Assembly (NCBI GenBank): GCA_963793215.1
Contig: CAWBZE010000005.1
Span: 1,291,746-1,355,745 of the forward strand
Length of the DNA stretch: 64,000 nt
Source of the DNA: an uncultured Cytophagales bacterium
GTDB taxonomy: Bacteria > Bacteroidota > Bacteroidia > Cytophagales > Cyclobacteriaceae
Direction: 5' to 3'
Position 1 is the first letter of the stretch, and each line of letters begins with the position of its first letter. The notes under the pieces were generated by a model, which was not told where the DNA came from, ran no database searches, and saw only the letters and a program-made list of their open reading frames with translations. This document shows positions 3,285 through 41,042 of the stretch, in pieces. The position numbers and the translations under genes are program-made.

Positions 3285-3986
3285 ATGTCTTTCAAAATTC
3301 TGCGTGAAACTGGTATTCTTAGTTGGGACGAAGCCGATCGCCCCCGCGAAAAACTGTTGCTTAAAGGACGCGCCGCCCTGTCGGATGCCGAACTGATTGC
3401 GATCTTGATCGGTTCGGGCACTCCTAAGCAGAGCGCGGTCGATCTGAGCAAAGACATTCTGAAGTCGGCGCAGCACAACCTGCACGAGTTGGCTAAACTG
3501 TCGGTCGATGAGCTGAAAAAGTTTCCGGGCATCGGCGAGGCCAAGGCGATTAGCATCGTGAGCGCCCTGGAGCTGGGGCGACGGCGCAAGGCCAGCGAAC
3601 CCACCAAGCGCGACAAGATCACCTGCTCGGACGATGCCTACGGAGTGATGCAGCCCTACCTGCTCGACCAGCCGCTGGAGCAGTTCTGGATCATTTTGCT
3701 CAATCGGGCCAACGAGGTGATCAAACCGCACTGCGTGAGCCAGGGAGGAGTGGCGGGTACCGTGGCCGACCCGAAAACGATCTTCAAGGCCGCACTTGAT
3801 AAACTGGCCAGTTCGATCATCCTGGTACACAACCACCCGTCGGGCAATTTAACCGCGAGCGAAGCGGATATGCGGCTCACCCAGAAGCTTAAGGAAGCTG
3901 GACAGATGCTGGATTTGCCGGTGCTGGATCACGTGATTTTTACTGATCACGGGTTTTACAGCTTTGCGGATGAGGGGGTGTTGTAG
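3285..3986 (+). CDS. radC: RadC-family JAB/MPN domain protein
   Basis: 233 aa with an HhH-like GIGEAKA and the JAMM motif HNHPSGNLTAS. The N-terminus has RPREKLL, typical of RadC. Confidence 0.9.
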   Translation: MSFKILRETGILSWDEADRPREKLLLKGRAALSDAELIAILIGSGTPKQSAVDLSKDILKSAQHNLHELAKLSVDELKKFPGIGEAKAISIVSALELGRRRKASEPTKRDKITCSDDAYGVMQPYLLDQPLEQFWIILLNRANEVIKPHCVSQGGVAGTVADPKTIFKAALDKLASSIILVHNHPSGNLTASEADMRLTQKLKEAGQMLDLPVLDHVIFTDHGFYSFADEGVL

Positions 3987-4104: not shown

Positions 4105-4602
4105 ATGATTGACCGTCACATCCGTCTGAGTACTCGTTTTCTTCCGCTTTTTAAAGGACTGTGCTATGTGTTGCTAATGGCCTTTCTCGCCTTGTCAATT
4201 CCAGCACTTACAGAAGGAGACTGGCGGGCGCTATTACTCCTACTCAGCAGTGGGAGTATGGTAATCGCTGCTTTGCGGAGTATGCAAAAGCTACGCACGG
4301 TTATTTGGGAGGATAACTAACTGCGGGTGAAGGATCAGCAAACGGTTCTTCTCTTGCCCGAAGAAATCAAAAACATAGAACTCAAAGTACTTATTGGAGT
4401 ACACGAGGTCACGCTGCACGAGCCGCATCCCTACCTGGGCGAGTCGTTTTTGTTCTTGGCTTCCATGACTTATTTGTTTAACTACGATAAGATTGACGAG
4501 CAGATGCGCGAACTTTGGCAACATATTTCCCAGTCGAAACGCGGACTAGTCACGGCGCAACGATCCCACGCACGTTCTGATAACCAGCATCTCACCCAGT
4601 AG
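4105..4602 (+). pseudogene. Small membrane protein ORF interrupted by one in-frame TAA (4318-4320)
   Basis: ORFs 4105-4320 and 4327-4602 are in the same frame (both = 1 mod 3) and are separated only by TAA-CTG-CGG. The N-terminal part has 2 predicted TM helices. The sequence reads through smoothly: ...TVIWEDN*LRVKDQQTVLLLPEE... Confidence 0.4.
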
Positions 4603-4922
4603 CCGTTCCTCTAGTGTCCAGCATCCTAGCCGTTCAGAAGATCAGCCTCCCGCTCCCCCTACAATCACCATCTGCCGCATAAGTTGGTATCTAGGGTGAC
4701 GTACGTTGCGGAGATCCTCTTCCGTGATCTCGATATCATAATCTTCCCGAAGAGTCCGTAGTTTGTCCAACGATTGCCAATTAAAGCGGCAACGAGTTCG
4801 CCTCCGCAAAATCTTGGCGGGGCGGTTGTTCCTTTCCGTTATAAATTAGTTCTTTGGCGAAGGTCACCCGGCACATCGTTCTTCTTGGCGACTCCGTTCA
4901 CTATTTCTAATCCCCCCAACGC

Positions 4923-25796: not shown

Positions 25797-26939
25797 TTAT
25801 TCTGAACTGATCAGAAAAAGAGCTTCAGCAATACCATCGGCAATTATTTTGCCGCTATTTGTTAATATAAGTCGGTTTTCTTGCACCACTGCTTTGCCTT
25901 CCTCAGCAAGTCGATTGACGTAAGCTGAATGTTCCTGATAAAGGTCGTACTCAAAGTGGTTTTTGAGTTCTTCTAAATCACATCCCCACTTGGTACGTAG
26001 TCCGGTCATCACCCGTTCGTTGATCTGATCGTAGCGCGACAAAACTTCTCGCTCAAAAGGAACCACTCCTTCTGTCAATGCCTGTTGGTACTTCGCGTTG
26101 TGCGCCACATTATACTGTCGGCTCTCTCCGTCGTACGAATGAGCACTCGGGCCAATCCCCAGGTATTTCTGGTTTTGCCAGTAGCTTGTGTTGTGCTGGG
26201 CGTAATAGTCTGCTTGGCAAAAGTTAGATACCTCGTAGGGATCAAAACCCGCCGTGACAAGCGTGGTATTTAGTAGCTCAAACTGTTCGGCGGCGAAGGC
26301 ATCGCTCACCGCCCGCAACTTGCCCTGCTGCTGCCATCGACCAAACACCGTCTTTTCTTCAATCGTTAGGCAGTACGAGGAAATATGTTGCGGATGCAGA
26401 GCCACCGCCTGGGCCAAGTCGCGTTCCCAAATGCGGTGGTCTTCGGCAGGAATGGCGTAGATCAGATCAATGCTGATGTTGTCAAAACCTACATCTTGGG
26501 CCTGCTGCACGCACCGAACGGCTTCATCGGCCCGGTGTGCCCGGTTTAAATACCGCAGGTGCGGTTCGTGAAACGACTGAATGCCAATGCTCAAGCGGTT
26601 GATTCCTACCGTGCGCAAATCCTTTAGTTTAGCAAGATTTAGATCATCAGGATTGGCCTCGAGCGTAATCTCTGGTTGGGCAACCACGGGATAGTGCTGA
26701 TAAACCGTAGCCAGTAACTGATCCAACTCGGCAGCCGTGAGCAACGAGGGGGTACCACCGCCTAAGTAGATCGTCTGCACCGCCTCCCCACCCAGGTAGT
26801 TGCGCTGAAGAGTCAGCTCCTCGGCCAAAGCACGTGCCATTTCCTCCCGATGCCGCGTATTCGTGCTAAAGTGAAAATCGCAGTAGTGACACGCCTGCTT
26901 GCAAAATGGAATGTGTAGGTAAATTCCGGCCATAGGCAT
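25797..26939 (-). CDS. hemW: Radical SAM heme chaperone HemW (coproporphyrinogen III oxidase-like)
   Basis: YLHIPFCKQACHYCDF (CxxxCxxC) followed by an HemN_C-like C-terminus. I prefer ATG 26939 or 26933 over 27032. Confidence 0.85.
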   Translation of the reverse strand: MPMAGIYLHIPFCKQACHYCDFHFSTNTRHREEMARALAEELTLQRNYLGGEAVQTIYLGGGTPSLLTAAELDQLLATVYQHYPVVAQPEITLEANPDDLNLAKLKDLRTVGINRLSIGIQSFHEPHLRYLNRAHRADEAVRCVQQAQDVGFDNISIDLIYAIPAEDHRIWERDLAQAVALHPQHISSYCLTIEEKTVFGRWQQQGKLRAVSDAFAAEQFELLNTTLVTAGFDPYEVSNFCQADYYAQHNTSYWQNQKYLGIGPSAHSYDGESRQYNVAHNAKYQQALTEGVVPFEREVLSRYDQINERVMTGLRTKWGCDLEELKNHFEYDLYQEHSAYVNRLAEEGKAVVQENRLILTNSGKIIADGIAEALFLISSE

Positions 26940-27053
26940 TCTAACGTGCGCTCCTCTTCCCCCGTTCCTAAAATCCAGCCATTCGAACCGCTGTCTCTGC
27001 TCATTCAATTTTTCTTCCTTGAATCCTGACAATTTCCTGCTTAACCTTGTTCG

Positions 27054-27620
27054 ATGGAAATCAATTGGATAGAAGCGCTGGCCCTGGTGTTCGGACTAGT
27101 TGCGGTATACCTCAACACCCGCGAGATTGTGTGGGGCTGGCCGGTGGGCATCGTAGGGGTGGTGCTCAGCGGCATGCTGTTCTACGAAGTTCGACTCTAC
27201 TCAGATTTGATTTTGCACGTAGTTTACGTTGTGCTAGGTTTCTACGGGTGGTATGAATGGCTGTACGGCGGCCGGAACAACGCTGCGTTGCGCGTGAACA
27301 CGCTTTCGTCGGCTGCGATTTTGACGCTGCTGGCGCTGGGTGCCGTCGGAATGGGTGCTATTGGTTACGCCTTCGATCACTATACGGATGCCGACCTGGC
27401 CTACTGGGACGCCTTCACCACCTCGTTCAGCTTGGTGGGGCAGTATATGCTGGCGAAGAAAAAGCTGGAGAACTGGCTGCTGTGGATTGGGGTGGATGCG
27501 GTAGCGACGGGCATCTACGCCTACAAAGAACTTTACTTACTGTCGCTGCTCTACTTTTTGTACCTCGGACTAGCCGCTTACGGATACCAGCAGTGGAAAA
27601 AAACGCTGGCTCATGCTTAA
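27054..27620 (+). CDS. pnuC: PnuC-family nicotinamide riboside (or related vitamin) transporter
   Basis: 188 aa with 7 TM helices. WIEALALVFGLVAVYLNTRE...WGWPVG and YGWYEW resemble PnuC. Confidence 0.8.
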   Translation: MEINWIEALALVFGLVAVYLNTREIVWGWPVGIVGVVLSGMLFYEVRLYSDLILHVVYVVLGFYGWYEWLYGGRNNAALRVNTLSSAAILTLLALGAVGMGAIGYAFDHYTDADLAYWDAFTTSFSLVGQYMLAKKKLENWLLWIGVDAVATGIYAYKELYLLSLLYFLYLGLAAYGYQQWKKTLAHA

Positions 27621-28122
27621 GATAGTGGTCACCGGTCCCGAGTCCAGCGGAAAAACCACCTTGGCCCAAGCGCTGGCGGCGCACTACCAAGTGCCCTGGG
27701 TGGCCGAATACGCCCGATCCTACATTGAACAGCTTGCGCAACCCTACCAAGAGGAAGATTTGCTGGCGATTGCTCAAGGGCAGGTGCAGCGCGAAGATGA
27801 GCAAGCGCAAACGAATCCGCACTTGCTCATCTGCGACACCAGCTTGCTGGTGATTTACGTGTGGAGCCACTACCGCTACGGCCGCTGCCACCCCTGGATT
27901 GCGAGACAACTCGCCCGCCGCCCCGTGGATCATTACCTACTCTGCTCCCCCGACCTCCCCTGGCAGCCCGACCCCCAGCGCGAAAACCCGACCGACCGCC
28001 CCGAACTGTTTGCCCAATACGAAGCAGCACTGCGCGAAAAATCCTACACCGTTGTAGCCGGTCAGGGAAAGATTCGGCTTGAAACCGCGATCAACGTAAG
28101 CGACCGTTTGCTCAAGCCGTAG
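27613..28122 (+). CDS. AAA-family ATPase, NadR-type ribosylnicotinamide kinase-like
   Basis: Walker A GPESSGKTTLAQAL followed by WVAEYAR.Y. It overlaps the pnuC stop by 8 nt. Confidence 0.7.
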   Translation: MLKIVVTGPESSGKTTLAQALAAHYQVPWVAEYARSYIEQLAQPYQEEDLLAIAQGQVQREDEQAQTNPHLLICDTSLLVIYVWSHYRYGRCHPWIARQLARRPVDHYLLCSPDLPWQPDPQRENPTDRPELFAQYEAALREKSYTVVAGQGKIRLETAINVSDRLLKP

Positions 28123-28130
28123 TTTCTGAA

Positions 28131-28138
28131 TACATTTG
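28131..28138 (+). promoter_or_regulatory. TAnnTTTG -7 box immediately upstream of the TPP riboswitch
   Basis: TACATTTG at 28131-28138 with a TTG at 28108-28110 (20-nt spacer). The riboswitch aptamer starts a few nt downstream. Confidence 0.5.
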
Positions 28139-28140
28139 TC

Positions 28141-28220
28141 GCACAGGGGTGCCCTATAACAGCGGGCTGAGATTATACCCATTGAACCTGATCCGGGTAA
28201 TGCCGGCGAAGGGATACGGT
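28141..28220 (+). ncRNA. TPP (THI-box) riboswitch aptamer
   Basis: aGGGGTGCcc...gGGCTGAGAttatACCCattgAACCTGATCcGGgTAATGCCgGCGaAGGGA. It contains the invariant CUGAGA and ACCUGAUC.GG.UAAUGCC.GCG..GGGA blocks of RF00059 in the correct order and spacing. Confidence 0.9.
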
Positions 28221-28286
28221 ATGGTAATTATACGTGGGGCGTTCATTCCCCTAGCTCCCGATTTATTTACCAAATTACAACTCAAT

Positions 28287-30623
28287 ATGCGATCTTTTTT
28301 CATTGGTCTGGCCGCCAGCGTGATGCTCTCCGCCAGCGGGTGGGCTCAGCGGGTGGTGCAAGGCAAAATAACCGACCGTCAGCAACAGCCTTTGATAGGA
28401 GCCACCGTCGTAGTGCCCCAAACCACCCAGGGAACGGTAACCGATTCCCGGGGATTTTATCAATTGAGTGGGAAGGCAGCGTCTCTAGAAATTCAGGTGA
28501 GCTATGTGGGCTATCAAACCCAAACAATATCGCTCACCGCTACCGAAGACACCCTCATTCAAAGTGTAGTACTCCGCGAAAAAGCTTCGCTAGAGGAAGT
28601 GGTGATCCGGGCCGTTCGGGCCGATGAACGAGCACCGGTGACCCAAACCACCGTTGATCAGCAGGGCATCGAGGCCGTTTATGTCGGACAAGACGCCTTG
28701 TTTGCCCTGGAAGAATTGACTCCCGCTATCCTGGCTTACTCTGAATCGGGCACTAATTTTGGCAACTACGGGCAGATGCGCCTGCGTGGAATAGACCAAA
28801 CCCGCATCAACATCACCCTCGATGGGGTGCCGCTCAACGATATGATCGACCAGGGTGTGTTCTTCTCCAATTTCACCGATTTTGGCAACAGCATCGCCTC
28901 GGTGCAGGTGCAGCGCGGGGTGGGCACCAGCACCAACGGCACCGCTTCCTACGCCGGTTCGATCAATTTCGAGTCAGTTAACCTCAACGACAGCGTGCCG
29001 AGCGTGGAGGTGCAACTGCTGGGTGGCTCGTTCGATACCTACCGCGCCAGCGGCGAAGTAAAAACCGGACTGCTCGACAACCAAACCGCCTTCTACGGCC
29101 GCTTCACCCGCACCCTTTCCGACGGTTACCGCGACCACACCAGCACCAATTCCTACTCCTTCTTCTTCTCCGGAGGCTACTTCGGAAGGAAAGATCTGCT
29201 AAAAATAACCGGCTTCACGGGGCGCAGCCAGAACGGCTTGGCCTACTTGCCGGTGGCCCTGCCTGATATTCAGTGCCGTCCCGAAACCAACTACGTGTCG
29301 GAGAACGACATTGACGACTTTGGGCAGTCGCTGGTGCAGTTGCGGTACACGCGCTTCGTGGGGGTGAATACTTCCTGGACTTCAACGCTGTACTACGGCG
29401 CGGCCGGAGGGGACTTCCCCGCCGGATTCTCGGAGCCAGCGAATACTTTTTCGGTCAATGGATTGGATACAACTTTCGCCACCACCGACCGGTTCACGCA
29501 GCTCAATTATCCTTTATTTAATGATCACTACGGGCTGACGTCTTCGGTGGGTCATACCTCCAACAATGGCCGCTGGGAGCTGAACGGGGGAGTGCATGCC
29601 TATACTTTTCGGAGGAAAAACATAGAAACGATCATTCCGGATGATGCTAGCCCGTATTACCAGGATCGTTCGCACAAGGATGAATTCAGCTCCTTCTCCA
29701 AACTTAGCTATTCGCAGAATCACTGGTTGCTGTTTGCCGATTTGCAACTGCGCACTGTGACGCTAGGTCTGCAAACCGATCCAATGTTTTTGGGGCAACC
29801 CGCGCCCATTCCTGACCGGCAGTGGTTTTTCGTGAACCCAAAAGTGGGCGTAACCTACTCGGTAAGCTCTCAGACTAACCTGTACGCCTCCTACGGCCGC
29901 AGTGGTCGCGAACCAACCCGCTTCGATATTTTAGGCTCTACGCAGATCAATACGTTCAATCTGGCGAGTGTGCAGAATATTGATGCCGTGAAAGCCGAGT
30001 ACGTCAACGATTTTGAGGCGGGGGTGCGATTTCGCACTGAGCGATTGAGCGGACAGGCGAACCTGTTCTACATGCAGTTCACCAATGAGATTGCCCCCAT
30101 TGGTCAGGCGATCCCCGAAGGGTTTGTGCAACTGCGGAAAAACATTGCGAGCAGCTACCGCCGTGGTCTGGAACTAGAGTGGCAATATCGTCTTTTTCCG
30201 GTACTATCGTTTGTAGGCAATTTGGCCTACTTGCAGAGCAATATCGACACCTTCAATCCGGAAGACGAAGAGCGAGTTTACTACGACGTGGAACCAATTA
30301 TTAGCCCGTCCTGGATCGCCAACGGCGCGCTTCAGTACCAAACCGAGCTATTTTCGGTGGCTTTGAACGCTCGCTACGTGAGTGAGTCGTTTCTAGAACC
30401 GACCAACCGCCCGGACCTTACCCTCCCGGCTTTCTTCGTGCTGGATGCCCAGGCTTCGGTGCGCTTTCTGAAGGATCAGGAGCTTAGTCTGCACGCCAAC
30501 AATTTGCTTAATCAGCCTTACTATACCTTCGGGCAGCCGGTAACCGTCGGCGAAACCACCGTACCGGGCTACTTTGTGCAAGCTCCGCTCAGTGTGTATG
30601 CCCTCTTACGCCTTAAATTTTAG
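28287..30623 (+). CDS. TonB-dependent receptor (riboswitch-controlled; candidate thiamine/thiamine-moiety receptor)
   Basis: Signal peptide MRSFFIGLAASVMLSASGWAQ, a CarboxypepD_reg-like N-domain (VVQGKITD...PLIGATVVV), then plug and barrel with a terminal ...LLRLKF. The track start at 28149 overlaps the riboswitch, so I reject it. Confidence 0.9.
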   Translation: MRSFFIGLAASVMLSASGWAQRVVQGKITDRQQQPLIGATVVVPQTTQGTVTDSRGFYQLSGKAASLEIQVSYVGYQTQTISLTATEDTLIQSVVLREKASLEEVVIRAVRADERAPVTQTTVDQQGIEAVYVGQDALFALEELTPAILAYSESGTNFGNYGQMRLRGIDQTRINITLDGVPLNDMIDQGVFFSNFTDFGNSIASVQVQRGVGTSTNGTASYAGSINFESVNLNDSVPSVEVQLLGGSFDTYRASGEVKTGLLDNQTAFYGRFTRTLSDGYRDHTSTNSYSFFFSGGYFGRKDLLKITGFTGRSQNGLAYLPVALPDIQCRPETNYVSENDIDDFGQSLVQLRYTRFVGVNTSWTSTLYYGAAGGDFPAGFSEPANTFSVNGLDTTFATTDRFTQLNYPLFNDHYGLTSSVGHTSNNGRWELNGGVHAYTFRRKNIETIIPDDASPYYQDRSHKDEFSSFSKLSYSQNHWLLFADLQLRTVTLGLQTDPMFLGQPAPIPDRQWFFVNPKVGVTYSVSSQTNLYASYGRSGREPTRFDILGSTQINTFNLASVQNIDAVKAEYVNDFEAGVRFRTERLSGQANLFYMQFTNEIAPIGQAIPEGFVQLRKNIASSYRRGLELEWQYRLFPVLSFVGNLAYLQSNIDTFNPEDEERVYYDVEPIISPSWIANGALQYQTELFSVALNARYVSESFLEPTNRPDLTLPAFFVLDAQASVRFLKDQELSLHANNLLNQPYYTFGQPVTVGETTVPGYFVQAPLSVYALLRLKF

Positions 30624-30704
30624 ATCAACCTTACGTTGTTGCTCCAATAATTCGTTTACCTCTTCATTGACTCATTCTTTCACTCATTCCTCTCCCCCCA
30701 ACCT

Positions 30705-31649
30705 ATGAAAATCACGCTCGCCCTTGATTGGTCTCCCAATACCCTACACGCCGGTTATTTCATTGCTGAAGCCGAAGGCTACTTTAAAGACAATCAGCTG
30801 GACGTAACGTTTGTTAGCCCGGAAGAAGACAACTACGCCACCACTCCGGCCAAAAAAGTTGCTGATCGACAGGCGCACGTAGCGGTGGCCCCTTCCGAAA
30901 GTGTCATCAGCTTCAACACGCTGCCCGATGCGGTGCCCCTGGTCGCGATCGCCGCCGTGTTACAAGAAGATGCCAGCGCCATTGTGACCCGGAGCGACAG
31001 TGGCATCACCCGCCCGGCGCAGCTCGACGGAAAAACTTTTGCTTCATACCAAGCCCGGTTTGAGGATGATATCGTCCGTCAACTCGTGCAGGCCGATGGC
31101 GGACAGGGTAATTTGACGATATCAAGTCCCGATAAACTGGAAATGTGGCGCACGGTAGCCGAAGGAACGGCCGATGCTACCTGGGTTTTCTTGCCGTGGG
31201 AAGGACCTAAAGCCCGCCACGAAGCGCAGATTACCTTTAACGCCTTCCACCTGAGCGATTATCGTATTCCGTACGGTTATTCGCCGCTTCTGGTCACCTA
31301 CGAGGAGCTTATTGAACAAGAACCTGAGCGGCTGCGAGCGTTCGTTCGGGCGGTGGAGAAGGGCTGGCACTTTGTCCACGATCACCCGGGTCGGGCTGCT
31401 GATATTTTATGCGACCATATCCGCCATCCTGACTTCCGGAATCGGAAGATGATCAAAGAATCGCTAAATTTGCTGCAACCTGCTATCCTGGGAGGTGGTA
31501 ACCGCTGGGGCTTTATGGACGGGACGCGCTGGCTCACTTGGGTAGAGTGGATGATCAACACAAAAGTGCTCAAAGATACTTCCGGTAATCCCATCAACTT
31601 CGGGCAAATCGACACCTCGATGCTTTACACCAACGACTTCTTTAAATGA
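30705..31649 (+). CDS. NMT1/THI5-like domain protein (no signal peptide)
   Basis: The N-terminus KITLALDWSPNTLHAGYFIAEAEGYFKDNQLDV parallels the yeast THI5 / bacterial ThiY fold start (KITFLLNWQPTPYH...GYFKEQGLD), as I recall it. Confidence 0.7.
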   Translation: MKITLALDWSPNTLHAGYFIAEAEGYFKDNQLDVTFVSPEEDNYATTPAKKVADRQAHVAVAPSESVISFNTLPDAVPLVAIAAVLQEDASAIVTRSDSGITRPAQLDGKTFASYQARFEDDIVRQLVQADGGQGNLTISSPDKLEMWRTVAEGTADATWVFLPWEGPKARHEAQITFNAFHLSDYRIPYGYSPLLVTYEELIEQEPERLRAFVRAVEKGWHFVHDHPGRAADILCDHIRHPDFRNRKMIKESLNLLQPAILGGGNRWGFMDGTRWLTWVEWMINTKVLKDTSGNPINFGQIDTSMLYTNDFFK

Positions 31650-31653
31650 CAGT

Positions 31654-33030
31654 ATGCTTGACGTCTTAAATCCTCAGAAGATTCCGGTGCTGGCCACCAC
31701 CGATATTTTGGTGATCGGCGCCGGGTCAGCCGGTTGCGCGGCGGCACTGGCGGCAGCCCAATCGAAGAAGTATAGAGTGATGCTGGTAGAACGCTACGGT
31801 TTCGCCGGGGGCACCTCTACCCAAATGCTGGATACTTTCTACGGTTTCTTCACCCCGGGGGATGCGCCTCGTAAAGTGGTGGGCGGCGTACCCGACCAAG
31901 TAGTTAACCGCCTTAAGCAAACGGGCGATATGTTTCTGCGCCCCAATACCTACGGAGCGGGCACGGGCGTTAATTACAACCCGGAACGTCTGAAACTGGT
32001 GTGGGACCAGATGATCCTGGAAGCGGGTATTAACTACTGGCTGCACACCCATCTGGTAGCGGTGGCCGAACGGGAAGAGGGTTTTACGGTCTGTATTTTC
32101 TGGAATAAAAACGGGTTTCACAGGGTGCGCGCCCGACGGGTTATCGATGCCTCGGGCGACGCTGACTTTTGCTGCCACGCGGGCTACGACTTCGAGTTGG
32201 CGGGCGAAGCGGAACCAGCGCAGAGCATGACGACCACCTTTCGAATGAGCAACGTTGATCTGGAACGATACGAGGCGGCGGGCGGCAAAAAGATGCTGCA
32301 GGAGAAGATGATCGGGGCGGTGGAACAAGAAACCCATCCCCTACCCCGAAAAAAAGGGTCGGCGCACGCCATGTGCCAGGAAAAGTGCATCGCCACCGTC
32401 GCGGTGAAGGTGGCCAATCTCCAGGCCATGAACGTGTCAGAACTCACCCAGGCCGAAATAGAGGGGCGGCGGCAGACATTCATCTACGAACGCTTTTTCC
32501 AGCAAGCAGTGCCCGGCTACGAACGGGCCAGCGTCATCGGTATGTCGCACCACATCGGAGTGCGAGAAACCCGGCGCGTGTACGGCGAGGAGCGCCTCAC
32601 CAAAGAACAGTGCATGGCGGGGTTCATCCCCAATGATCGCATACTGCTGTGCGGTGCCCCAATAGAAGACCACCGCCTGGGAAAAGACGGTGAAGAAGAA
32701 ACCATCTGGGAATACGTGCCGAATGCCGGAGTGTACGGTGTCTCCTACGGAGCCATCGTGCCAAGGAGAAGTGATACCGCCTGGGTAGTGGGCCGCTGCT
32801 TCTCGGCCACCCACGATGCCCACGCTTCGTGCCGCTCGATGGGCCAGACCATGTCGATGGGCCAGGCCGCGGGGATTGCCGCCGTGCTTTCGCTAGATGC
32901 TGATACCAATGCGACTGGTGTTGCTATCAACGATCTGCAAGAATCGCTGCTGAAGCTAGGAGCCGTGCTGGAGTTTCCGGCTCATCTAGCCGATACTTCG
33001 CCCGACGGATGGGGAAAGACCGTATCCTAA
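31654..33030 (+). CDS. FAD-dependent oxidoreductase (FAD_oxidored-type)
   Basis: The dinucleotide fold is DILVIGAGSAGCAAALAAA...VERYGFAGG. The protein is 458 aa and starts 5 nt after the upstream stop. Confidence 0.75.
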   Translation: MLDVLNPQKIPVLATTDILVIGAGSAGCAAALAAAQSKKYRVMLVERYGFAGGTSTQMLDTFYGFFTPGDAPRKVVGGVPDQVVNRLKQTGDMFLRPNTYGAGTGVNYNPERLKLVWDQMILEAGINYWLHTHLVAVAEREEGFTVCIFWNKNGFHRVRARRVIDASGDADFCCHAGYDFELAGEAEPAQSMTTTFRMSNVDLERYEAAGGKKMLQEKMIGAVEQETHPLPRKKGSAHAMCQEKCIATVAVKVANLQAMNVSELTQAEIEGRRQTFIYERFFQQAVPGYERASVIGMSHHIGVRETRRVYGEERLTKEQCMAGFIPNDRILLCGAPIEDHRLGKDGEEETIWEYVPNAGVYGVSYGAIVPRRSDTAWVVGRCFSATHDAHASCRSMGQTMSMGQAAGIAAVLSLDADTNATGVAINDLQESLLKLGAVLEFPAHLADTSPDGWGKTVS

Positions 33031-33055
33031 AGAATGCAAGCACTAACCAAATGTT

Positions 33056-34006
33056 ATGACTGGTTTTGTCAGAACGGTACTGGGCGATATTGCTCCCGAA
33101 AGCATGGGGCTCACCTACGCGCACGAGCATATCATTATTGAGGCGAGCTTTCCCACCGTCCAAAATCCCGAATTTTTACTAAACGACGTCGACAAAGTAA
33201 GCCAGGAGCTCGAAGCCGTCTACCGGGGCGGCGGCCGCACAATGGTAGACACCATGCCCGCCAACTGCGGCCGCAACGTACTAAAATTGGCCGAGGTGTC
33301 GCGGCGAAGCGGGATTCATATCATCGTTCCCACTGGAATTCACCTTGAGCAGTACTACCCACCCCACCACTGGCGCTATCAATACAACGAAGACCAACTC
33401 ACCCGCCTGTTTATCGCTGATGTAGAAGAAGGGATTGATCAATACGATTACGCGGGTCCGATCATCGAGCGGACGCCCCACCGGGCGGGCATGATTAAGT
33501 TGGCTACCGGCGATGAAAAGTTTACTCCGCACCAAGAGATGATCTTTCGGGCGGTGGTGAACGCCCACCGGGAAACCGGGGTACCCATTCTTACCCACAC
33601 TAATTACGGACGCTGGGCGCTGGAACAGGCTTTGCTGTTCGACAAACTGGGGGCGGACCTTGGTCACGTGGTTCTCTCTCACGTCGACCGGTACGTAGAC
33701 GTGGATTACCACCGCGAGGTGCTGCAAACCGGCGTGCGGGTAGAGTATGATAGTGCCTTTCGCTGGAAGGAGGGGCAAGAAAACGGCACTTATCACTTAT
33801 TGAAAGCGTTGCTACCCCAGTACGCAGCGCAAATAACCATAGGAATGGACGCCGCCAAATACACCTATTGGCGCTCGTACGGTGGAACGCCAGGATTGGA
33901 TTTCCTACTCACTACCTTTAGGCAGGACCTTGAAACAATGGAGCTAAGCGCTTACTATAGCGAAATTATGTACGACACTCCCCAGAAGTTGTACACCTTC
34001 TTATAA
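33056..34006 (+). CDS. Phosphotriesterase-family (PTE/Php-like) amidohydrolase-fold protein
   Basis: The metal-binding HxH is in GLTYAHEHIII. The 316-aa length and the TIM-barrel pattern (...IVPTGIH..., ...ILTHT..., ...SHVD...) are typical of the family. Confidence 0.75.
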   Translation: MTGFVRTVLGDIAPESMGLTYAHEHIIIEASFPTVQNPEFLLNDVDKVSQELEAVYRGGGRTMVDTMPANCGRNVLKLAEVSRRSGIHIIVPTGIHLEQYYPPHHWRYQYNEDQLTRLFIADVEEGIDQYDYAGPIIERTPHRAGMIKLATGDEKFTPHQEMIFRAVVNAHRETGVPILTHTNYGRWALEQALLFDKLGADLGHVVLSHVDRYVDVDYHREVLQTGVRVEYDSAFRWKEGQENGTYHLLKALLPQYAAQITIGMDAAKYTYWRSYGGTPGLDFLLTTFRQDLETMELSAYYSEIMYDTPQKLYTFL

Positions 34007-34188: not shown

Positions 34189-34196
34189 TACCTTTG
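34189..34196 (+). promoter_or_regulatory. TAnnTTTG -7 box upstream of the DUF4271 gene
   Basis: TACCTTTG lies 46 nt upstream of ATG 34242 in an AT-rich 235-nt spacer. Confidence 0.4.
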
Positions 34197-36393: not shown

Positions 36394-36401
36394 TACCTTT
36401 G
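36394..36401 (+). promoter_or_regulatory. TAnnTTTG -7 box upstream of porP/sprF
   Basis: TACCTTTG lies 22 nt upstream of ATG 36423. Confidence 0.4.
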
Positions 36402-36422
36402 GTCGCGTTAGTGCCTCGCTCT

Positions 36423-37382
36423 ATGAAAGTAAAACTACTGTCTATTCTCTCTGGATTTATGCTGTTGGGCAGTTTAGGTGCGCATGCCCAACAAAGCGCG
36501 CAGTTCAGCCAGTATATGTTTAACACCTTATTCTACAACCCGGCCTACGCTGGGGTAGAAGGAGTAACAACTTTCACCGCTTTTCATCGCACCCAGTGGG
36601 CGGGCTACCAACCCACCAACGGCGACTTAGCGGGCGGCATCAGCACCCAGGTGATCAGTCTCAATACCCCAATTTTGGGTTTGAGAAGTGGCTTTGGAGT
36701 GCACGTGGTTAATGACCGTATTGGCCCACTCACCAACCAAGAAGCACAGCTTTCTTTTGCGTATCATTTGGGAGTAGGCAATGGCAAATTAAGCTTAGGT
36801 ATCCGTGCCGGAGCGTTTTCCCAGACCATCGATTTTGATGAATACCTATGGGTCGACCAGCTTGACCCGCTTCGGCAAGCCGGAAAAGACTCCCAAATGC
36901 GCCCCGATTTTTCCGCTGGCATCTTCTATCGGGCCCGACAGTACTACGGAGGCATTAGTTTTCAACATTTATTAGATACTCAGTTCAGTTTTGGAATTGA
37001 TACCCTTAATAATCCGTTGGAGAAACTGATGGTAGTCACTGGCGGATTTGATTACGAACCCACTTACAAAGTGCGTCTCACTCCATCATTTTTGGTGCAA
37101 TCCGACTTAAATACTTTTTCGTTCGATGTCGGAATACTTGCTACTTATGACGATACCATGTGGGCCGGACTGTCATATCGACAACAAGAAGCCTTGGTTG
37201 GAATGGTCGGGTACAGCTTCTTCAAGGAAAAATCGCTTAAGTTAGGGTATGCCTTTGATTATACGATCATCGCCCAGGAAGCAAAAGCTACGGCATCTCA
37301 CGAGATAATGTTACGGTATAGCCTGCCTTTTGCTTCGCAAAGTAATAAGAAGATCGTTCGGACGCCTCGTTTCAGACAATAA
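36423..37382 (+). CDS. Type IX secretion system membrane protein PorP/SprF
   Basis: Signal peptide followed by QQSAQFSQYMFNTLFYNPAYAG, the family signature N-terminus. It lies directly upstream of gldK. Confidence 0.9.
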   Translation: MKVKLLSILSGFMLLGSLGAHAQQSAQFSQYMFNTLFYNPAYAGVEGVTTFTAFHRTQWAGYQPTNGDLAGGISTQVISLNTPILGLRSGFGVHVVNDRIGPLTNQEAQLSFAYHLGVGNGKLSLGIRAGAFSQTIDFDEYLWVDQLDPLRQAGKDSQMRPDFSAGIFYRARQYYGGISFQHLLDTQFSFGIDTLNNPLEKLMVVTGGFDYEPTYKVRLTPSFLVQSDLNTFSFDVGILATYDDTMWAGLSYRQQEALVGMVGYSFFKEKSLKLGYAFDYTIIAQEAKATASHEIMLRYSLPFASQSNKKIVRTPRFRQ

Positions 37383-37530
37383 GCCCTATTTAAAGTAAAA
37401 TTATAACATTTATTAAATAAATTATAAAATGTTACAACGCAGTGAATTGCCAGAAAACGAGTAGTTCATTTGCTAGACTATCGCAATATTTGTGTTCGTG
37501 TTTACGTGTATGTATAAAACAATGTGTGTT

Positions 37531-38580
37531 ATGTGTAAAATTTTTCGCTACAGTAGTGCCGTCCTTTCGATGGCCGTACTGTTCGCTCTGCAAGGATGCG
37601 GCCTGTTTGGCGGCAAGGGCGATGATTTCGGTCAACTCGTAGGAGTTTCTGGAAGAGAGTACGACGGGATGCCTACTCCCTACGGCATGGTAAGAATCCC
37701 TGCCGGAACGTTCCACATGGGGCAAGCCGACGAGGATCCCGTGGCTACGCAGGTGAGCTTTAACAAGCAAATCACCATCGGGGCGTTCTTTATGGACGAT
37801 ACCGAGATCACCAACAATGAGTACCGACAATTTATCTACGAACTGCAAGAAGGCGAGGGTGAATACGACTTTCTCGTAGGCAAAGGCGCCAACTTCGTCA
37901 TGGATGAATTGTATCCCGACACCGCCGTGTGGCAGCGTAATTACACGCACCACATGGGCGATCCTCTGGTAACCTATTACTACTCTCACCCCGCTTTTGA
38001 TAATTATCCGGTGGTGGGTATAAACTGGGAAGCCGCTCAGGTATTCTGTCAGTGGCGCACCTCTTACCTCAATAGCTACCGCGAAAGCAACGGCATGTTC
38101 ATTATGCCTAATTTTCGACTACCCTCGGAGGCCGAGTGGGAATATGCCGCTCGCGGTGGACGCAAAATTGCTAAATACCCCTGGGGTGGCCCCTACATCC
38201 GTAACTCAAAGGGATGTATGCTGGCGAACTTCAAACCCGGTCGCGGCAACTACTTCGACGATGGCTTTGCCTACACCGCCCCCGTCAACTCTTATTTTGC
38301 CAACGACTTCGGTCTCTATGATATGTCGGGCAACGTGGGCGAATGGTGCGAAGACGCCTGGAATCCCGCCGCTACCGCCATTGTGTGGGACTTGAACCCA
38401 ACTTACAACGACCCCAACGAACCCCAAAAAGTGGTCCGTGGCGGCTCTTGGAAGGATATTTCTTACTTCTTACAAACCGGAACCCGAGGCTACGAGCACA
38501 AAGACTCTACCACGGCCTACACCGGATTCCGATGTGCTATGACCTACATCGGTCGCTCTGGCGGAAACGAACTCAATTAA
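37531..38580 (+). CDS. gldK: Gliding motility / T9SS lipoprotein GldK (PorK)
   Basis: It has the lipobox LFALQGC and an FGE-sulfatase fold (EAEWEYAARGG...RGGSWKD...GFRC). The start is uncertain within 37492-37531. Confidence 0.9.
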   Translation: MCKIFRYSSAVLSMAVLFALQGCGLFGGKGDDFGQLVGVSGREYDGMPTPYGMVRIPAGTFHMGQADEDPVATQVSFNKQITIGAFFMDDTEITNNEYRQFIYELQEGEGEYDFLVGKGANFVMDELYPDTAVWQRNYTHHMGDPLVTYYYSHPAFDNYPVVGINWEAAQVFCQWRTSYLNSYRESNGMFIMPNFRLPSEAEWEYAARGGRKIAKYPWGGPYIRNSKGCMLANFKPGRGNYFDDGFAYTAPVNSYFANDFGLYDMSGNVGEWCEDAWNPAATAIVWDLNPTYNDPNEPQKVVRGGSWKDISYFLQTGTRGYEHKDSTTAYTGFRCAMTYIGRSGGNELN

Positions 38581-38626
38581 ATCAAACAAATAAATCAAAC
38601 TCTAAATCAATTAAATCTCGACAAAC

Positions 38627-39418
38627 ATGAGCAAGAAAAAAGGTGGATTCACAGATCTTCTTTACGGATCAATTATGCCCAAAATCTACGGAATTGGGGC
38701 AGCAATCGTAATCGTTGGTGCAATGTTTAAAATCCTGCACTTAGAAGGCGGCGGACTGATGCTCGGTATCGGTTTGACCACAGAAGCAATTATCTTCTTC
38801 CTAAGTGCCTTTGAGCCGCGTCATCAGGAACCCGACTGGTCACTAGTTTACCCTGAATTAGCGGGTGGAGCGCAGGTTAGCCGCAAGGCGATCAGCAACG
38901 GTTCTACTTCTCAGAAGCTTGATGCGATGCTGGAAAGCGGTAAGGTAGGACCCGAACTGATCGATAGCCTTGGGCGCGGCATGAAAAACCTGTCTGAATC
39001 GGTAGGGAAAATGAGCGATCTAAGTAACGCCGCGGTAGCGACTAATGAGTACGCCACCAACGTGCAGCAGGCTTCTAAATCTATGGTAGACATGAATAAG
39101 TCGTATGCTACTACGGTATCTGCCATGAACGAAATGGCTGGTGCCAGTAAGGATGCTAAAGAGTATCATACGCAGGTACAAACTGTGACCAAGAACTTGG
39201 CTTCTCTGAACGCGGTATACGAAATGGAACTTCACGATGCCAACAGCCACTTGAAGTCTATGAACAAGTTCTATACGAACCTGAGCGGTGCTATGGAAAA
39301 CGTGGCCCAGGCAAGCAAAGATGCCGAGCAGTTCAAGAACAACTTCTCGTCGCTCAACGGCAACATCGCTTCGCTAAACAAGGTGTACGGCAATATGCTG
39401 ACCGCCATGCGTGCGTAA
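38627..39418 (+). CDS. gldL: Gliding motility / T9SS protein GldL (PorL)
   Basis: YGIGAAIVIVGAMFKILHLEGG...GLTTEAIIFFLSAFEP...DWSLVYPEL and a C-terminal ASLNKVYGNML. Confidence 0.92.
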   Translation: MSKKKGGFTDLLYGSIMPKIYGIGAAIVIVGAMFKILHLEGGGLMLGIGLTTEAIIFFLSAFEPRHQEPDWSLVYPELAGGAQVSRKAISNGSTSQKLDAMLESGKVGPELIDSLGRGMKNLSESVGKMSDLSNAAVATNEYATNVQQASKSMVDMNKSYATTVSAMNEMAGASKDAKEYHTQVQTVTKNLASLNAVYEMELHDANSHLKSMNKFYTNLSGAMENVAQASKDAEQFKNNFSSLNGNIASLNKVYGNMLTAMRA

Positions 39419-39455
39419 TCTTAAATTGATCGTAAACCACATAAGACAATAAATT

Positions 39456-41042
39456 ATGGCTGGAGGAAAAGAAACTCCCAGGCAGAAGATGATCGGGATG
39501 ATGTACCTGGTACTCACCGCACTTCTCGCCTTGCAAGTAAGCAACACGATTCTGGAGAAGTTTATCTTCATTGATCAGAGTCTGGAACAGTCGGCTGTCA
39601 ACACCAAGGTGAAGAACAGCGGCACCGTAGAGCGCATCCAGGCGGCCGTAGAGGACGCCGGTAACCGAGCTGAGGATGTAGCAGTACTCAAAGAAGCCCA
39701 GCAGGTTCGCGCTAAGACCACCGAAGTCCTGACCATGTTGGACAAGCTGAAGGAAGAGTTTGTGGTACTAACTGGTGGAATTGATGAAGACGGAAACTAC
39801 AAAGGTGGAAAAGAAGAAGCGAAGATCGCTGAACTAATGATTCGCGGCGGTCGTGGCGAGGAGTTGAAGGGACAACTAAACGGTTATACCTCTTTCCTTT
39901 CTTCAACGATTAAGAAGGATGTAGCTCCTATCGCGCTAGACGCTTCTGAAAACCCGGTGTTCATGGATGATCCCGAGCAGAAGGCCAAGAGCTTTTCGGA
40001 GATCACCTTTGAGAGCACGCCGATGGTAGCCGGTCGCGCTTCACTGACGCAATTCAAAACTGAGGTGCTAAACCGTGAAGCTGAGGCGCTAGACGCTTTG
40101 GCCCGCAAGGTAGGTGCTGCCGATATGAAGTTTGACAATATCGTAGCAATGGTTCGCCCGGAGTCTAACATCGTAGCTGCCGGCACCAAGTATAAGGCAG
40201 ACTTGTTCATCGCCGCCTCTTCTAGTATGGTGAATCCGGTGATGACCATCAATGGCAAAGCAATCCCTGTTGAGGGTGGTATGGGTAAGATTGAATTTCC
40301 GGCTTCGGCAACGAAGTACGACAAGGACAACCGCTCTGAGCAGAAGTTTAAAGCGTCAATCACCGTTGAGCAAGGCGGCAAGTCAGAAACCTACGAGAAC
40401 ACGGTCTCTTACTTCGTAACCAAGCCGGTGATTCAGGTGCAATCTCAGTCGGTGCAAGCGTTGTACTTGAACTGCGGTAACGAATTGCAGATCAACGTGC
40501 CTGCTTTAGGAACGATGTACAATCCGTCCTTCTCAGCCAATGGCGCTACCGCGATCAAGGGCAAGAAGACAGGAGAGGTAACCATTATTCCTCAGGCGAA
40601 AACGGTTTCACTCACGGTGAGCAGCGGTGGTAATCGCATCGGCACCGAGAAATTCTCGGTGAAGCGAATCCCTACTCCCACTATTGAAGTGTTCGGTCCG
40701 GGGAACAAGCCGATCAACCTGCGACAGGGTGAGGCAATTAACCGACTGCGCGCTATCACGGTAAAAGCAGTACCGGACGAAAGTTTCGCGACCTTCTTGC
40801 CGAAGGATGCTCGTTACAAAGTAACGGATGCTGAGGTGTTATTAGCCCGAGGAAGCCGTCCGCTAGGAAAAGCCAATCTGAGCAATCAGTCAGCGAATTT
40901 AAGTTCGCTGATGTCTCAAGCAAAGCCTGGCGACCGACTGGTAATCGATATCAAAAAAGTGCAGCGCATGAACTTTCAAGGGAAAACCGAGAACGTATCT
41001 ATCGGATCTAGCTCCTCGGTAGTTACCGTTCCGTTGAACTAG
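39456..41042 (+). CDS. gldM: Gliding motility / T9SS protein GldM (PorM)
   Basis: MAGGKETPRQKMIGMMYLVLTALLALQVS is the canonical GldM N-terminus; the protein is 528 aa. Confidence 0.92.
   Translation: MAGGKETPRQKMIGMMYLVLTALLALQVSNTILEKFIFIDQSLEQSAVNTKVKNSGTVERIQAAVEDAGNRAEDVAVLKEAQQVRAKTTEVLTMLDKLKEEFVVLTGGIDEDGNYKGGKEEAKIAELMIRGGRGEELKGQLNGYTSFLSSTIKKDVAPIALDASENPVFMDDPEQKAKSFSEITFESTPMVAGRASLTQFKTEVLNREAEALDALARKVGAADMKFDNIVAMVRPESNIVAAGTKYKADLFIAASSSMVNPVMTINGKAIPVEGGMGKIEFPASATKYDKDNRSEQKFKASITVEQGGKSETYENTVSYFVTKPVIQVQSQSVQALYLNCGNELQINVPALGTMYNPSFSANGATAIKGKKTGEVTIIPQAKTVSLTVSSGGNRIGTEKFSVKRIPTPTIEVFGPGNKPINLRQGEAINRLRAITVKAVPDESFATFLPKDARYKVTDAEVLLARGSRPLGKANLSNQSANLSSLMSQAKPGDRLVIDIKKVQRMNFQGKTENVSIGSSSSVVTVPLN

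Follow-up and report, generated by a model that had tools for sequence, protein, structure and literature searches.

A TPP riboswitch-receptor-NMT1 module conserved in Cytophagales, with a probably relocated flavoprotein-hydrolase pair behind it

Contig CAWBZE010000005.1 of an uncultured Cytophagales bacterium (assembly GCA_963793215.1) carries, within the 64,000-nt stretch analyzed here (the window), a thiamine pyrophosphate (TPP) riboswitch followed by genes for a TonB-dependent outer-membrane receptor (TBDR), a protein of the NMT1/ThiY fold, an FAD-dependent oxidoreductase (hereafter the flavoprotein) and a hydrolase of the phosphotriesterase (PTE) family. Riboswitch, receptor and NMT1-like protein belong to a conserved core module, and the flavoprotein and hydrolase are probably a phosphosugar-related pair that was relocated behind this core and is passively co-transcribed with it. 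The receptor would import thiamine or its pyrimidine moiety, and the NMT1-like protein would bind or process the aminopyrimidine in the cytoplasm. The pair would be transcribed along with the riboswitch operon but would not consist of thiamine-salvage enzymes; it would keep its ancestral chemistry, predicted to be two-step: a phosphorylated sugar derivative would undergo flavin-dependent oxidation, and the lactone-like product would then be hydrolyzed. Riboswitch context is strong evidence for assigning gene function, and the window shows its limit, in that genes brought together by a recent rearrangement can look like a functional operon. Comparison of about 170 related loci (numbered with the prefix L) indicates that two apparent new thiamine enzymes are recent passengers from a sugar-type gene cluster.

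The riboswitch itself is a full-length match to RF00059 (model positions 1–105), with 66.4 bits and E 7.6e-11 well above the gathering score of 54.3, and RF00059 is the sole Rfam family found in the window. The aptamer has a compact, thiM-like form, without the optional stem after CUGAGA. Its core blocks are all present, with CUGAGA in J3-2, ACCUGAUC..GG.UAAUGCC..GCG.AGGGA in P4/P5, and helices P1 to P5; in the consensus alignment, P1, P2, P3 and P4 each contain one non-canonical pair. The core is unchanged across six related loci, with compensatory changes in P5, and near-identical aptamers occupy the equivalent position in L081–L085. An earlier interpretation made from the letters alone (the sequence-only reading) had proposed this aptamer, a promoter box directly before it, four co-directional genes of the families named above separated by short gaps, an NMT1-like protein lacking a signal peptide, and no hairpin terminator between the genes. 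These proposals are borne out by the RF00059 score, by the fit of TACATTTG to TAnnTTTG, by domain profiles and open reading frames (ORFs; gaps of 81 nt between TBDR and NMT1, 4 nt between NMT1 and flavoprotein, and 25 nt between flavoprotein and PTE gene), by an NMT1 start that permits no N-terminal extension, and by a consensus scan that found no convincing terminator.

The order riboswitch-TBDR-NMT1, with RF00059 above its cut-off, recurs in L081–L087, L092, L095 and L096, all from one Cytophagales clade. Identity of the NMT1-like protein to that of the window is 90% in L083, 82% in L084, 78% in L092, 72% in L085, 66% in L086, 63–64% in L095 and L096, and 56% in L087. The whole syntenic block comprises HemW (on the minus strand), PnuC, an AAA_28 kinase, the riboswitch, the receptor, one or two NMT1 genes, DUF4271, HemD and PorP. 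Two of these loci, L081 (flavoprotein 91% identical) and L082 (88%), repeat the gene order of the window exactly, while L083–L087, L092, L095 and L096 have the syntenic block without the flavoprotein-hydrolase pair. The pair thus stands behind NMT1 only in the window, L081 and L082, and neither a flavoprotein nor a hydrolase homologue was found near NMT1 in any of 87 further NMT1 loci. Linkage to the riboswitch across relatives, which the sequence-only reading had expected of all four genes, therefore holds for the receptor and the NMT1-like protein (L081–L087, L092, L095 and L096) and fails for the flavoprotein and the hydrolase.

The core module probably extends beyond this clade. A distant locus, L137, has the order PnuC, AAA_28, TPP aptamer, receptor and signal-less NMT1, with an NMT1-like protein 39% and a receptor 28% identical to those of the window, and we regard it as probably a further case of the module. 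Its aptamer (3449–3605) contains all core motifs, but its P1 is weak and its P3 loop carries a 67-nt insertion; it scores 31.9 bits (local search E 1.5e-4). Since this is below the Rfam gathering score, standard annotation would miss it. More distant NMT1 relatives are also associated with TPP riboswitches: one lies in a riboswitch-ABC-permease-ThiY operon (L171; RF00059 75 bits), another directly behind a riboswitch (L166), and L172 holds a third. The relative in L171 has an export signal and adjacent genes for an ATP-binding cassette (ABC) transporter. Relatives at 46–49% identity (from Spirosoma, another bacterium and a haloarchaeon) are free-standing, and Rfam detects no riboswitch at the Spirosoma locus. 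In the haloarchaeal locus (L090, 5265–7945, from a Salinirubrum litoreum record), the 48%-identical NMT1 gene lies about 700 nt 3' of an AIRS/AIRS_C gene (ThiL- or PurM-like); no riboswitch was detected at L090 by the narrower covariance model built from six aptamers.

The flavoprotein and hydrolase have a different usual home. The flavoprotein family has more than 7,400 homologues, the best 120 of them at 67–91% identity, and a scan with one genome per species gave 507 confirmed loci. We examined 80 of these (L001–L080), spanning Bacteroidota, Verrucomicrobiota and Planctomycetota, with 8 kb on each side; neighboring ORFs were clustered and representatives were scanned with Pfam, the ORF calling used for clustering being crude. 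A PTE homologue lies 3' of the flavoprotein gene within 700 nt in 66 of the 80 loci and at 2–4.5 kb in eight more; the contig ends first in five, and the homologue is absent in one. The usual genes on the 5' side are those for an SDR (short-chain dehydrogenase), a kinase of the ROK family and a phosphosugar-binding SIS_2 protein; 66 loci have at least one of the three, and 46 have the full set. Frequent companions include Gfo/Idh/MocA oxidoreductases, xylose-isomerase-like TIM barrels, a GntR/UTRA regulator, a MetE-like protein and a metallo-beta-lactamase-fold protein. The five-gene cluster of SDR, ROK kinase, SIS_2, flavoprotein and PTE is conserved across the three phyla (e.g., L003 at 5–10.7 kb, L024 and L061). 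Our literature search, which covered the gene combination, PF12831 and phospho-sugar lactonases, found no paper on this cluster or on the operon variant of the window.

Homologues of the receptor, NMT1, PnuC or the kinase were found in the 8-kb flanks of none of the 80 flavoprotein loci. TPP riboswitches were likewise found in none of the 80 by a pattern search, by the covariance model built from six aptamers (best E = 2.5) or, for nine of the loci, by Rfam. The riboswitch negative is meaningful because the same model detects divergent TPP aptamers in unrelated loci, at 20–38 bits.

Sequence features of the two proteins are consistent with retained activity on phosphosugars. The window flavoprotein keeps every invariant column of a 20-sequence alignment, five invariant cysteines included, and the binuclear-metal ligand motifs of the hydrolase (HxH, a bridging Lys/Glu, two His and an Asp) are intact, in the form of YAHEH, KLATG, LTHT, LSHVD and GMDAA, with ligands assigned by inspection. 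The closest solved relatives of the hydrolase by sequence are 3pnz (Lmo2620) and 3msr/3ovg (the Mycoplasma protein Ms0025), both of them hydrolases of phosphorylated sugar lactones. The best NCBIfam model is the phospho-furanose lactonase NF045706, at 174.8 bits against an equivalog cut-off of 630, which makes the hydrolase a relative and not an equivalog. It resembles PTE lactonases of the Lmo2620/Ms0025 type in its best structure and NCBIfam matches and in its metal motifs, and the ROK, SIS and SDR neighbors fit phosphosugar chemistry; unlike the characterized lactonases, it has an obligate PF12831 flavoprotein partner. Because a ROK kinase, a SIS protein and a dehydrogenase are the habitual partners of the pair, we infer a two-step phosphosugar route.

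The history of the junction between NMT1 and the pair can be followed in the relatives. In Catalimonadaceae bacterium JC749, the pair is part of an SDR-ROK-SIS-flavoprotein-PTE cluster on contig 1 (L024), and a riboswitch-TBDR-NMT1-NMT1 locus is on contig 5 (L087). One other genome holds both an SDR-ROK-SIS locus (L091) and a riboswitch locus (L092), each without the pair. DNA alignment of L083 with the window (L083 positions 4581–4700) reveals, after the NMT1 stop codon, a decayed stub of about 65 nt that corresponds to the start of the flavoprotein gene but has ATA for ATG and small indels; past the stub, the alignment skips to the spacer before DUF4271, and the 3' end of the PTE gene may also have left a trace. 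The stub implies that the pair was lost in L083 and that riboswitch, receptor and NMT1 were retained. No flavoprotein stub is present in L092. By these alignments, the pair reached NMT1 in the common ancestor of the window, L081, L082 and L083, after the split from the lineages at 78–82% identity.

The nearest flavoprotein outside this clade, at 83% identity, is that of L001, which is annotated as Tunicatimonas sp., belongs to the same family and follows SDR and SIS genes. Horizontal acquisition of the pair is unsupported, as its GC content matches that of its neighbors and the closest homologue is in the same family (L001). Intragenomic relocation would be the simplest reading of how the pair arrived. 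Separately, a short Y1-transposase ORF (PF01797) lies in L084 (9387–9596) between the second NMT1 gene and DUF4271, the same spot as that of the window pair, and hints that this spacer is prone to rearrangement.

Ratios of nonsynonymous to synonymous substitution rates (dN/dS) are 0.05–0.07 for the flavoprotein and 0.04–0.08 for the hydrolase, and they are equal among the three carriers and against L001, where the pair is in its old context. The pair remains under purifying selection, and nothing in the rates or residues suggests a change of function. Given the gap of 1–4 nt in all three carriers, the pair is likely co-transcribed with NMT1 in the window genome. An AT-rich spacer of 187 nt follows the PTE gene, and the TACCTTTG box at 34189 likely marks the start of the next transcription unit, and hence the downstream limit of the operon.

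Several observations weigh against a relocated phosphosugar pair that is merely carried along. No SIS homologue from the window genome was among the top 120 of 8,000 near-equal hits, which says little about whether that genome still has the SDR-ROK-SIS partners; L091 has these partner genes but no pair. The pair stays 1–4 nt from NMT1 in three lineages separated by synonymous divergence (dS) of about 0.7–1.6, which would also be expected if the arrangement were useful. The phosphosugar assignment depends on neighbors and on distant PTE relatives, with the NCBIfam score far under its cut-off. For the flavoprotein, sequence searches gave no solved homologue beyond the dinucleotide-binding motif, its AlphaFold model has a mean predicted local distance difference test (pLDDT) score of 70, and Foldseek against PDB returned generic two-domain flavoprotein matches with template-modeling (TM) scores of about 0.4.

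The pair could also be transcribed independently, from a promoter of its own in the 3' end of NMT1 (TAAATTTG at 31465), and so escape the riboswitch. We consider this unlikely. The box fits TAnnTTTG, lies 189 nt 5' of the flavoprotein start, and is found in the window, L081, L082 and L083, which have or had the pair, and is missing in L084–L087. Thiamine has little effect on the levels of the OMthi and pnuT transcripts in Bacteroides (PMC5613172), and these data suggest that some TPP riboswitches of the phylum act only on translation of the first gene (PMC5613172). However, the box lies within coding sequence, where it encodes part of a conserved ESLxLL motif; its presence in four closely related loci is sufficiently explained by shared ancestry, and no -33 element was seen. 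The whole window contains 22 plus-strand matches to the box, not far from the 15.6 expected by chance. Between 27.0 and 35.6 kb there are six such matches, of which four are in short spacers just 5' of gene starts and two are within coding sequence. The four spacer boxes, at 28131, 34189, 35307 and 35367 (all on the plus strand), precede the riboswitch, DUF4271 and HemD, a distribution that fits the Bacteroidota -7 element.

That the captured pair has gained a thiamine-linked role or thiamine-dependent regulation in this genus is, taken as a general proposition, less likely still. Another reading is regulatory co-option, in which the sugar chemistry is kept but induction under TPP scarcity has been selected, for example to spare or bypass a TPP-dependent sugar-phosphate step. 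The tight junction with NMT1, conserved at 1–4 nt across the dS range given above, speaks for this, as does the terminator-like platform described below, which would put all downstream genes under TPP control. Yet the pair was lost in L083 with no trace of compensation and is missing from all other relatives, and the bypass is speculative and has no independent evidence, so that we regard co-option as very unlikely.

A further reading is the proposal of the sequence-only reading, a four-gene salvage pathway in which a thiamine analogue or degradation product, taken up by the receptor, is turned by the flavoprotein and hydrolase into a usable precursor that the NMT1-like protein binds or makes. 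A genuine TPP riboswitch heading four co-directional genes that are only 81, 4 and 25 nt apart, an arrangement kept in two relatives (L081 and L082), purifying selection on the genes and the chemical versatility of both enzyme families are all in its favor, but the linkage is confined to one shallow clade and is absent from the 80 other pair loci and from the 87 NMT1 loci, the conserved partners of the pair are SDR, ROK kinase and SIS proteins, the sister lineage L083 deleted the pair and kept the riboswitch module, neither a rate change nor a loss of invariant residues signals a new function, and the nearest PTE relatives suggest phospho-sugar lactones, which together leave this pathway highly improbable. 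The sequence-only reading had itself named a lack of linkage in related genomes as grounds against salvage enzymes, and that lack is what we found.

The expression platform contains a hairpin whose loop carries CCCCU (28248–28252), complementary to the AGGGG strand of aptamer helix P2. In the consensus fold of the leaders, AGGGG pairs with CCCCU, and AUUAUACC pairs with GGUAUGGU directly 3' of the aptamer; both complementarities are conserved among the leaders and compete with the aptamer. Eight loci (window, L081–L085, L087 and L092) have CCCCU in the loop of a short GGRGC/GCUYC hairpin, followed by CGAUUUAUUU, and L086, L095 and L096 have a different, perfect 7-bp hairpin and a U-rich tract. 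The leader therefore has a terminator/antiterminator-like layout and probably acts by attenuation, judging from this pattern of conserved pairing. With TPP bound, P2 would form and leave the hairpin free, stopping transcription; with no TPP, AGGGG would capture the CCCCU loop and allow read-through. If attenuation is correct, everything transcribed from the 28131 promoter is thiamine-repressed, the pair included.

Attenuation has to be set against the weakness of the platform hairpins (-6 to -10 kcal/mol), leader fold z-scores of about 0, with single-sequence folding no better than shuffled controls, and a terminator scan that did not flag them. Control may instead be at translation, which is the favored reading for the Bacteroides transport operons (PMC5613172). 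Minimum-free-energy folding of the lone leader was rejected as a way of defining the platform on account of these z-scores, and only the comparison of loci defined it. Within the operon, the consensus scan found four terminator-like sites against 9.4 expected by chance, all of them within coding sequence, and no convincing intrinsic terminator between the genes.

Coordinates of the features discussed are collected in Table 1. Positions are those of the window, and the last column gives the evidence for each assignment.

Table 1. Features of the riboswitch operon and its immediate surroundings in the 64,000-nt window.
Feature	Position	Strand	Basis
PnuC-family inner-membrane transporter gene	27054-27620	+	PF04973 E 1.4e-53; TIGR01528 83 bits vs. 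cut-off 42
AAA_28 P-loop kinase gene	27613-28122	+	PF13521 E 2e-37; matches C-terminal domain of TIGR01526; PDB matches NadR proteins
Candidate Bacteroidota -7 promoter box TACATTTG = TAnnTTTG	28131-28138	+	consensus match only
TPP riboswitch aptamer (RF00059), thiM-like	28134-28231	+	Rfam covariance-model match
Putative expression platform	28236-28271	+	hairpin GGGGC (28236-28240) / GCUCC (28254-28258), then CGAUUUAUUUACC
TBDR gene	28287-30623	+	CarbopepD_reg_2, Plug, TonB_dep_Rec_b-barrel; signal peptide MRSFFIGLAASVMLSASGWAQ
Cytoplasmic NMT1/ThiY-fold protein gene	30705-31649	+	PF09084 E 4.4e-45, profile positions 1-216 of 216
Candidate internal promoter box TAAATTTG in NMT1 3' part	31465-31472	+	pattern match, 189 nt 5' of flavoprotein start
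PF12831 FAD-dependent oxidoreductase gene	31654-33030	+	PF12831 E 3e-86
PTE-family (amidohydrolase) hydrolase gene	33056-34006	+	PF02126 E 3.4e-39
Box TACCTTTG before DUF4271 gene	34189-34196	+	pattern match; box and surroundings conserved in L083

The NMT1-like protein is central to the function of the core. Its ORF is preceded by an in-frame stop, and the first start codon available gives MKITLALDW...; an N-terminal extension is impossible, and the protein therefore has no signal peptide. Its best PDB matches, nearly full length, are 4nmy (E 7e-33) and the formylaminopyrimidine-binding protein ThiY (3ix1; E 9e-23). The subfamily consists of cytoplasmic proteins of about 314 aa with 58% mean column identity and the motifs ALDWxPNT, TPAK, APSES, ARFE, PWEG and PYGYSP; such strong conservation fits a specific ligand site or active site. 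Selection on the gene is purifying (dN/dS 0.07–0.09), as it is on the receptor (0.09 against L083). The recurrent place of these proteins behind TPP riboswitches points to a link with the thiamine pyrimidine, and, as far as fold and genomic context can tell, the NMT1-like protein most likely binds, traps or converts imported aminopyrimidine in the cytoplasm.

Two established roles for this fold were considered and ruled out. THI5p is marked by Lys62, which carries pyridoxal phosphate (PLP), and His66, which is consumed (PMC10848271). Similarity of THI5 to the window protein covers only the N-terminal 120 residues (E 5e-9), and the two positions are occupied by Ser/Ile or Ala/Ser depending on the aligner (HMMER, MAFFT), and in all 22 aligned subfamily members the invariant APSES stretch contains neither Lys nor His. 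A THI5-type hydroxymethylpyrimidine phosphate (HMP-P) synthase is excluded by the missing Lys62 and His66, and a periplasmic ThiY role by the lack of a signal peptide and of ABC partner genes in the locus.

Relatives encode two NMT1 paralogues in tandem, and the window keeps a single gene, the orthologue of the second. Tandem cytoplasmic paralogues, 36–39% identical to each other, occur in L084 (6928–8945), L085 (6933–8942), L086 (5985–7945), L087 (5973–7945), L095 and L096. In the first paralogue, a PSEH/PTEH motif includes a conserved His, which is placed opposite His66 of THI5 in the MAFFT alignment, but the Lys62 position has no Lys.

It is possible, though at less than even chances, that the core module represents a new biochemical step by which Cytophagales, and at least one further lineage of Bacteroidota, acquire or process the thiamine pyrimidine. 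The binding-protein fold would then act intracellularly, as an enzyme or as a trapping protein.

Immediately upstream of the riboswitch are genes for a PnuC-family transporter and an AAA_28 kinase, the latter ending 12 nt before the riboswitch match. PnuC (4qtn) is the sole PDB match of the transporter, and the kinase resembles the ribosylnicotinamide-kinase domain of NadR; together, by their families, they look like a nicotinamide-riboside uptake pair. Wherever the available sequence reaches far enough upstream, both genes are found 5' of the riboswitch (window, L081–L087, L092, L095, L096 and L137, where a DUF4301 gene intervenes). This position places the PnuC gene outside riboswitch control, and the two genes are not themselves preceded by a riboswitch. 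Their constant adjacency raises the possibility that PnuC and the kinase could supply the inner-membrane and trapping steps of a thiamine module, in the manner of PnuT. Domain profile searches found no thiamine pyrophosphokinase domain in the unit.

The window unit is a variant of the established riboswitch-receptor and ThiY-type riboswitch systems. Gut Bacteroidetes have TPP-riboswitch-controlled thiamine transport operons, including OMthi (BT2390) and pnuT-tnr3 (BT2396-97; PMC5613172). The window unit resembles the Bacteroides OMthi units in arrangement, with a TPP riboswitch directly before a TBDR and with a Pnu-family transporter and a kinase encoded alongside. It differs in that these two genes are 5' of the riboswitch and not behind it, that the kinase is a NadR-type P-loop kinase (AAA_28) and not a thiamine pyrophosphokinase, and that one or two cytoplasmic proteins of the NMT1/ThiY fold, missing from the Bacteroides operons, are encoded behind the receptor. 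With the ThiY of ThiXYZ, the window protein shares the PF09084 fold and family and the association with TPP riboswitches, but it belongs to a distinct subfamily and has neither a signal peptide nor an adjacent ABC permease or ATPase. THI5p of yeast and Candida, a single-turnover HMP-P synthase (PMC10848271), is of the same Pfam family, cytoplasmic and linked to thiamine regulation; the window protein lacks its Lys62 and His66 and is similar to it only in the N-terminal part. Interest remains in two systems: a Cytophagales uptake unit that pairs a thiamine-regulated TBDR with cytoplasmic ThiY-like proteins, and a widespread five-gene cluster in three phyla that includes an uncharacterized flavoprotein family.

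Two observations concern the wider neighborhood. A HemW-like radical-SAM gene occupies window positions 25797–27032 on the minus strand, where the mechanically called ORF (411 aa) is 21 nt from pnuC; orthologues in relatives are called at 344–378 aa, and the true start in the window is probably further in, which would make the divergent spacer about 100 nt or more. On the other side of the operon, positions 36399–41042 contain a gliding-motility and type IX secretion block (PorP/SprF, a GldK-like protein with an FGE-sulfatase domain, GldL and GldM), which is syntenic in all relatives examined.

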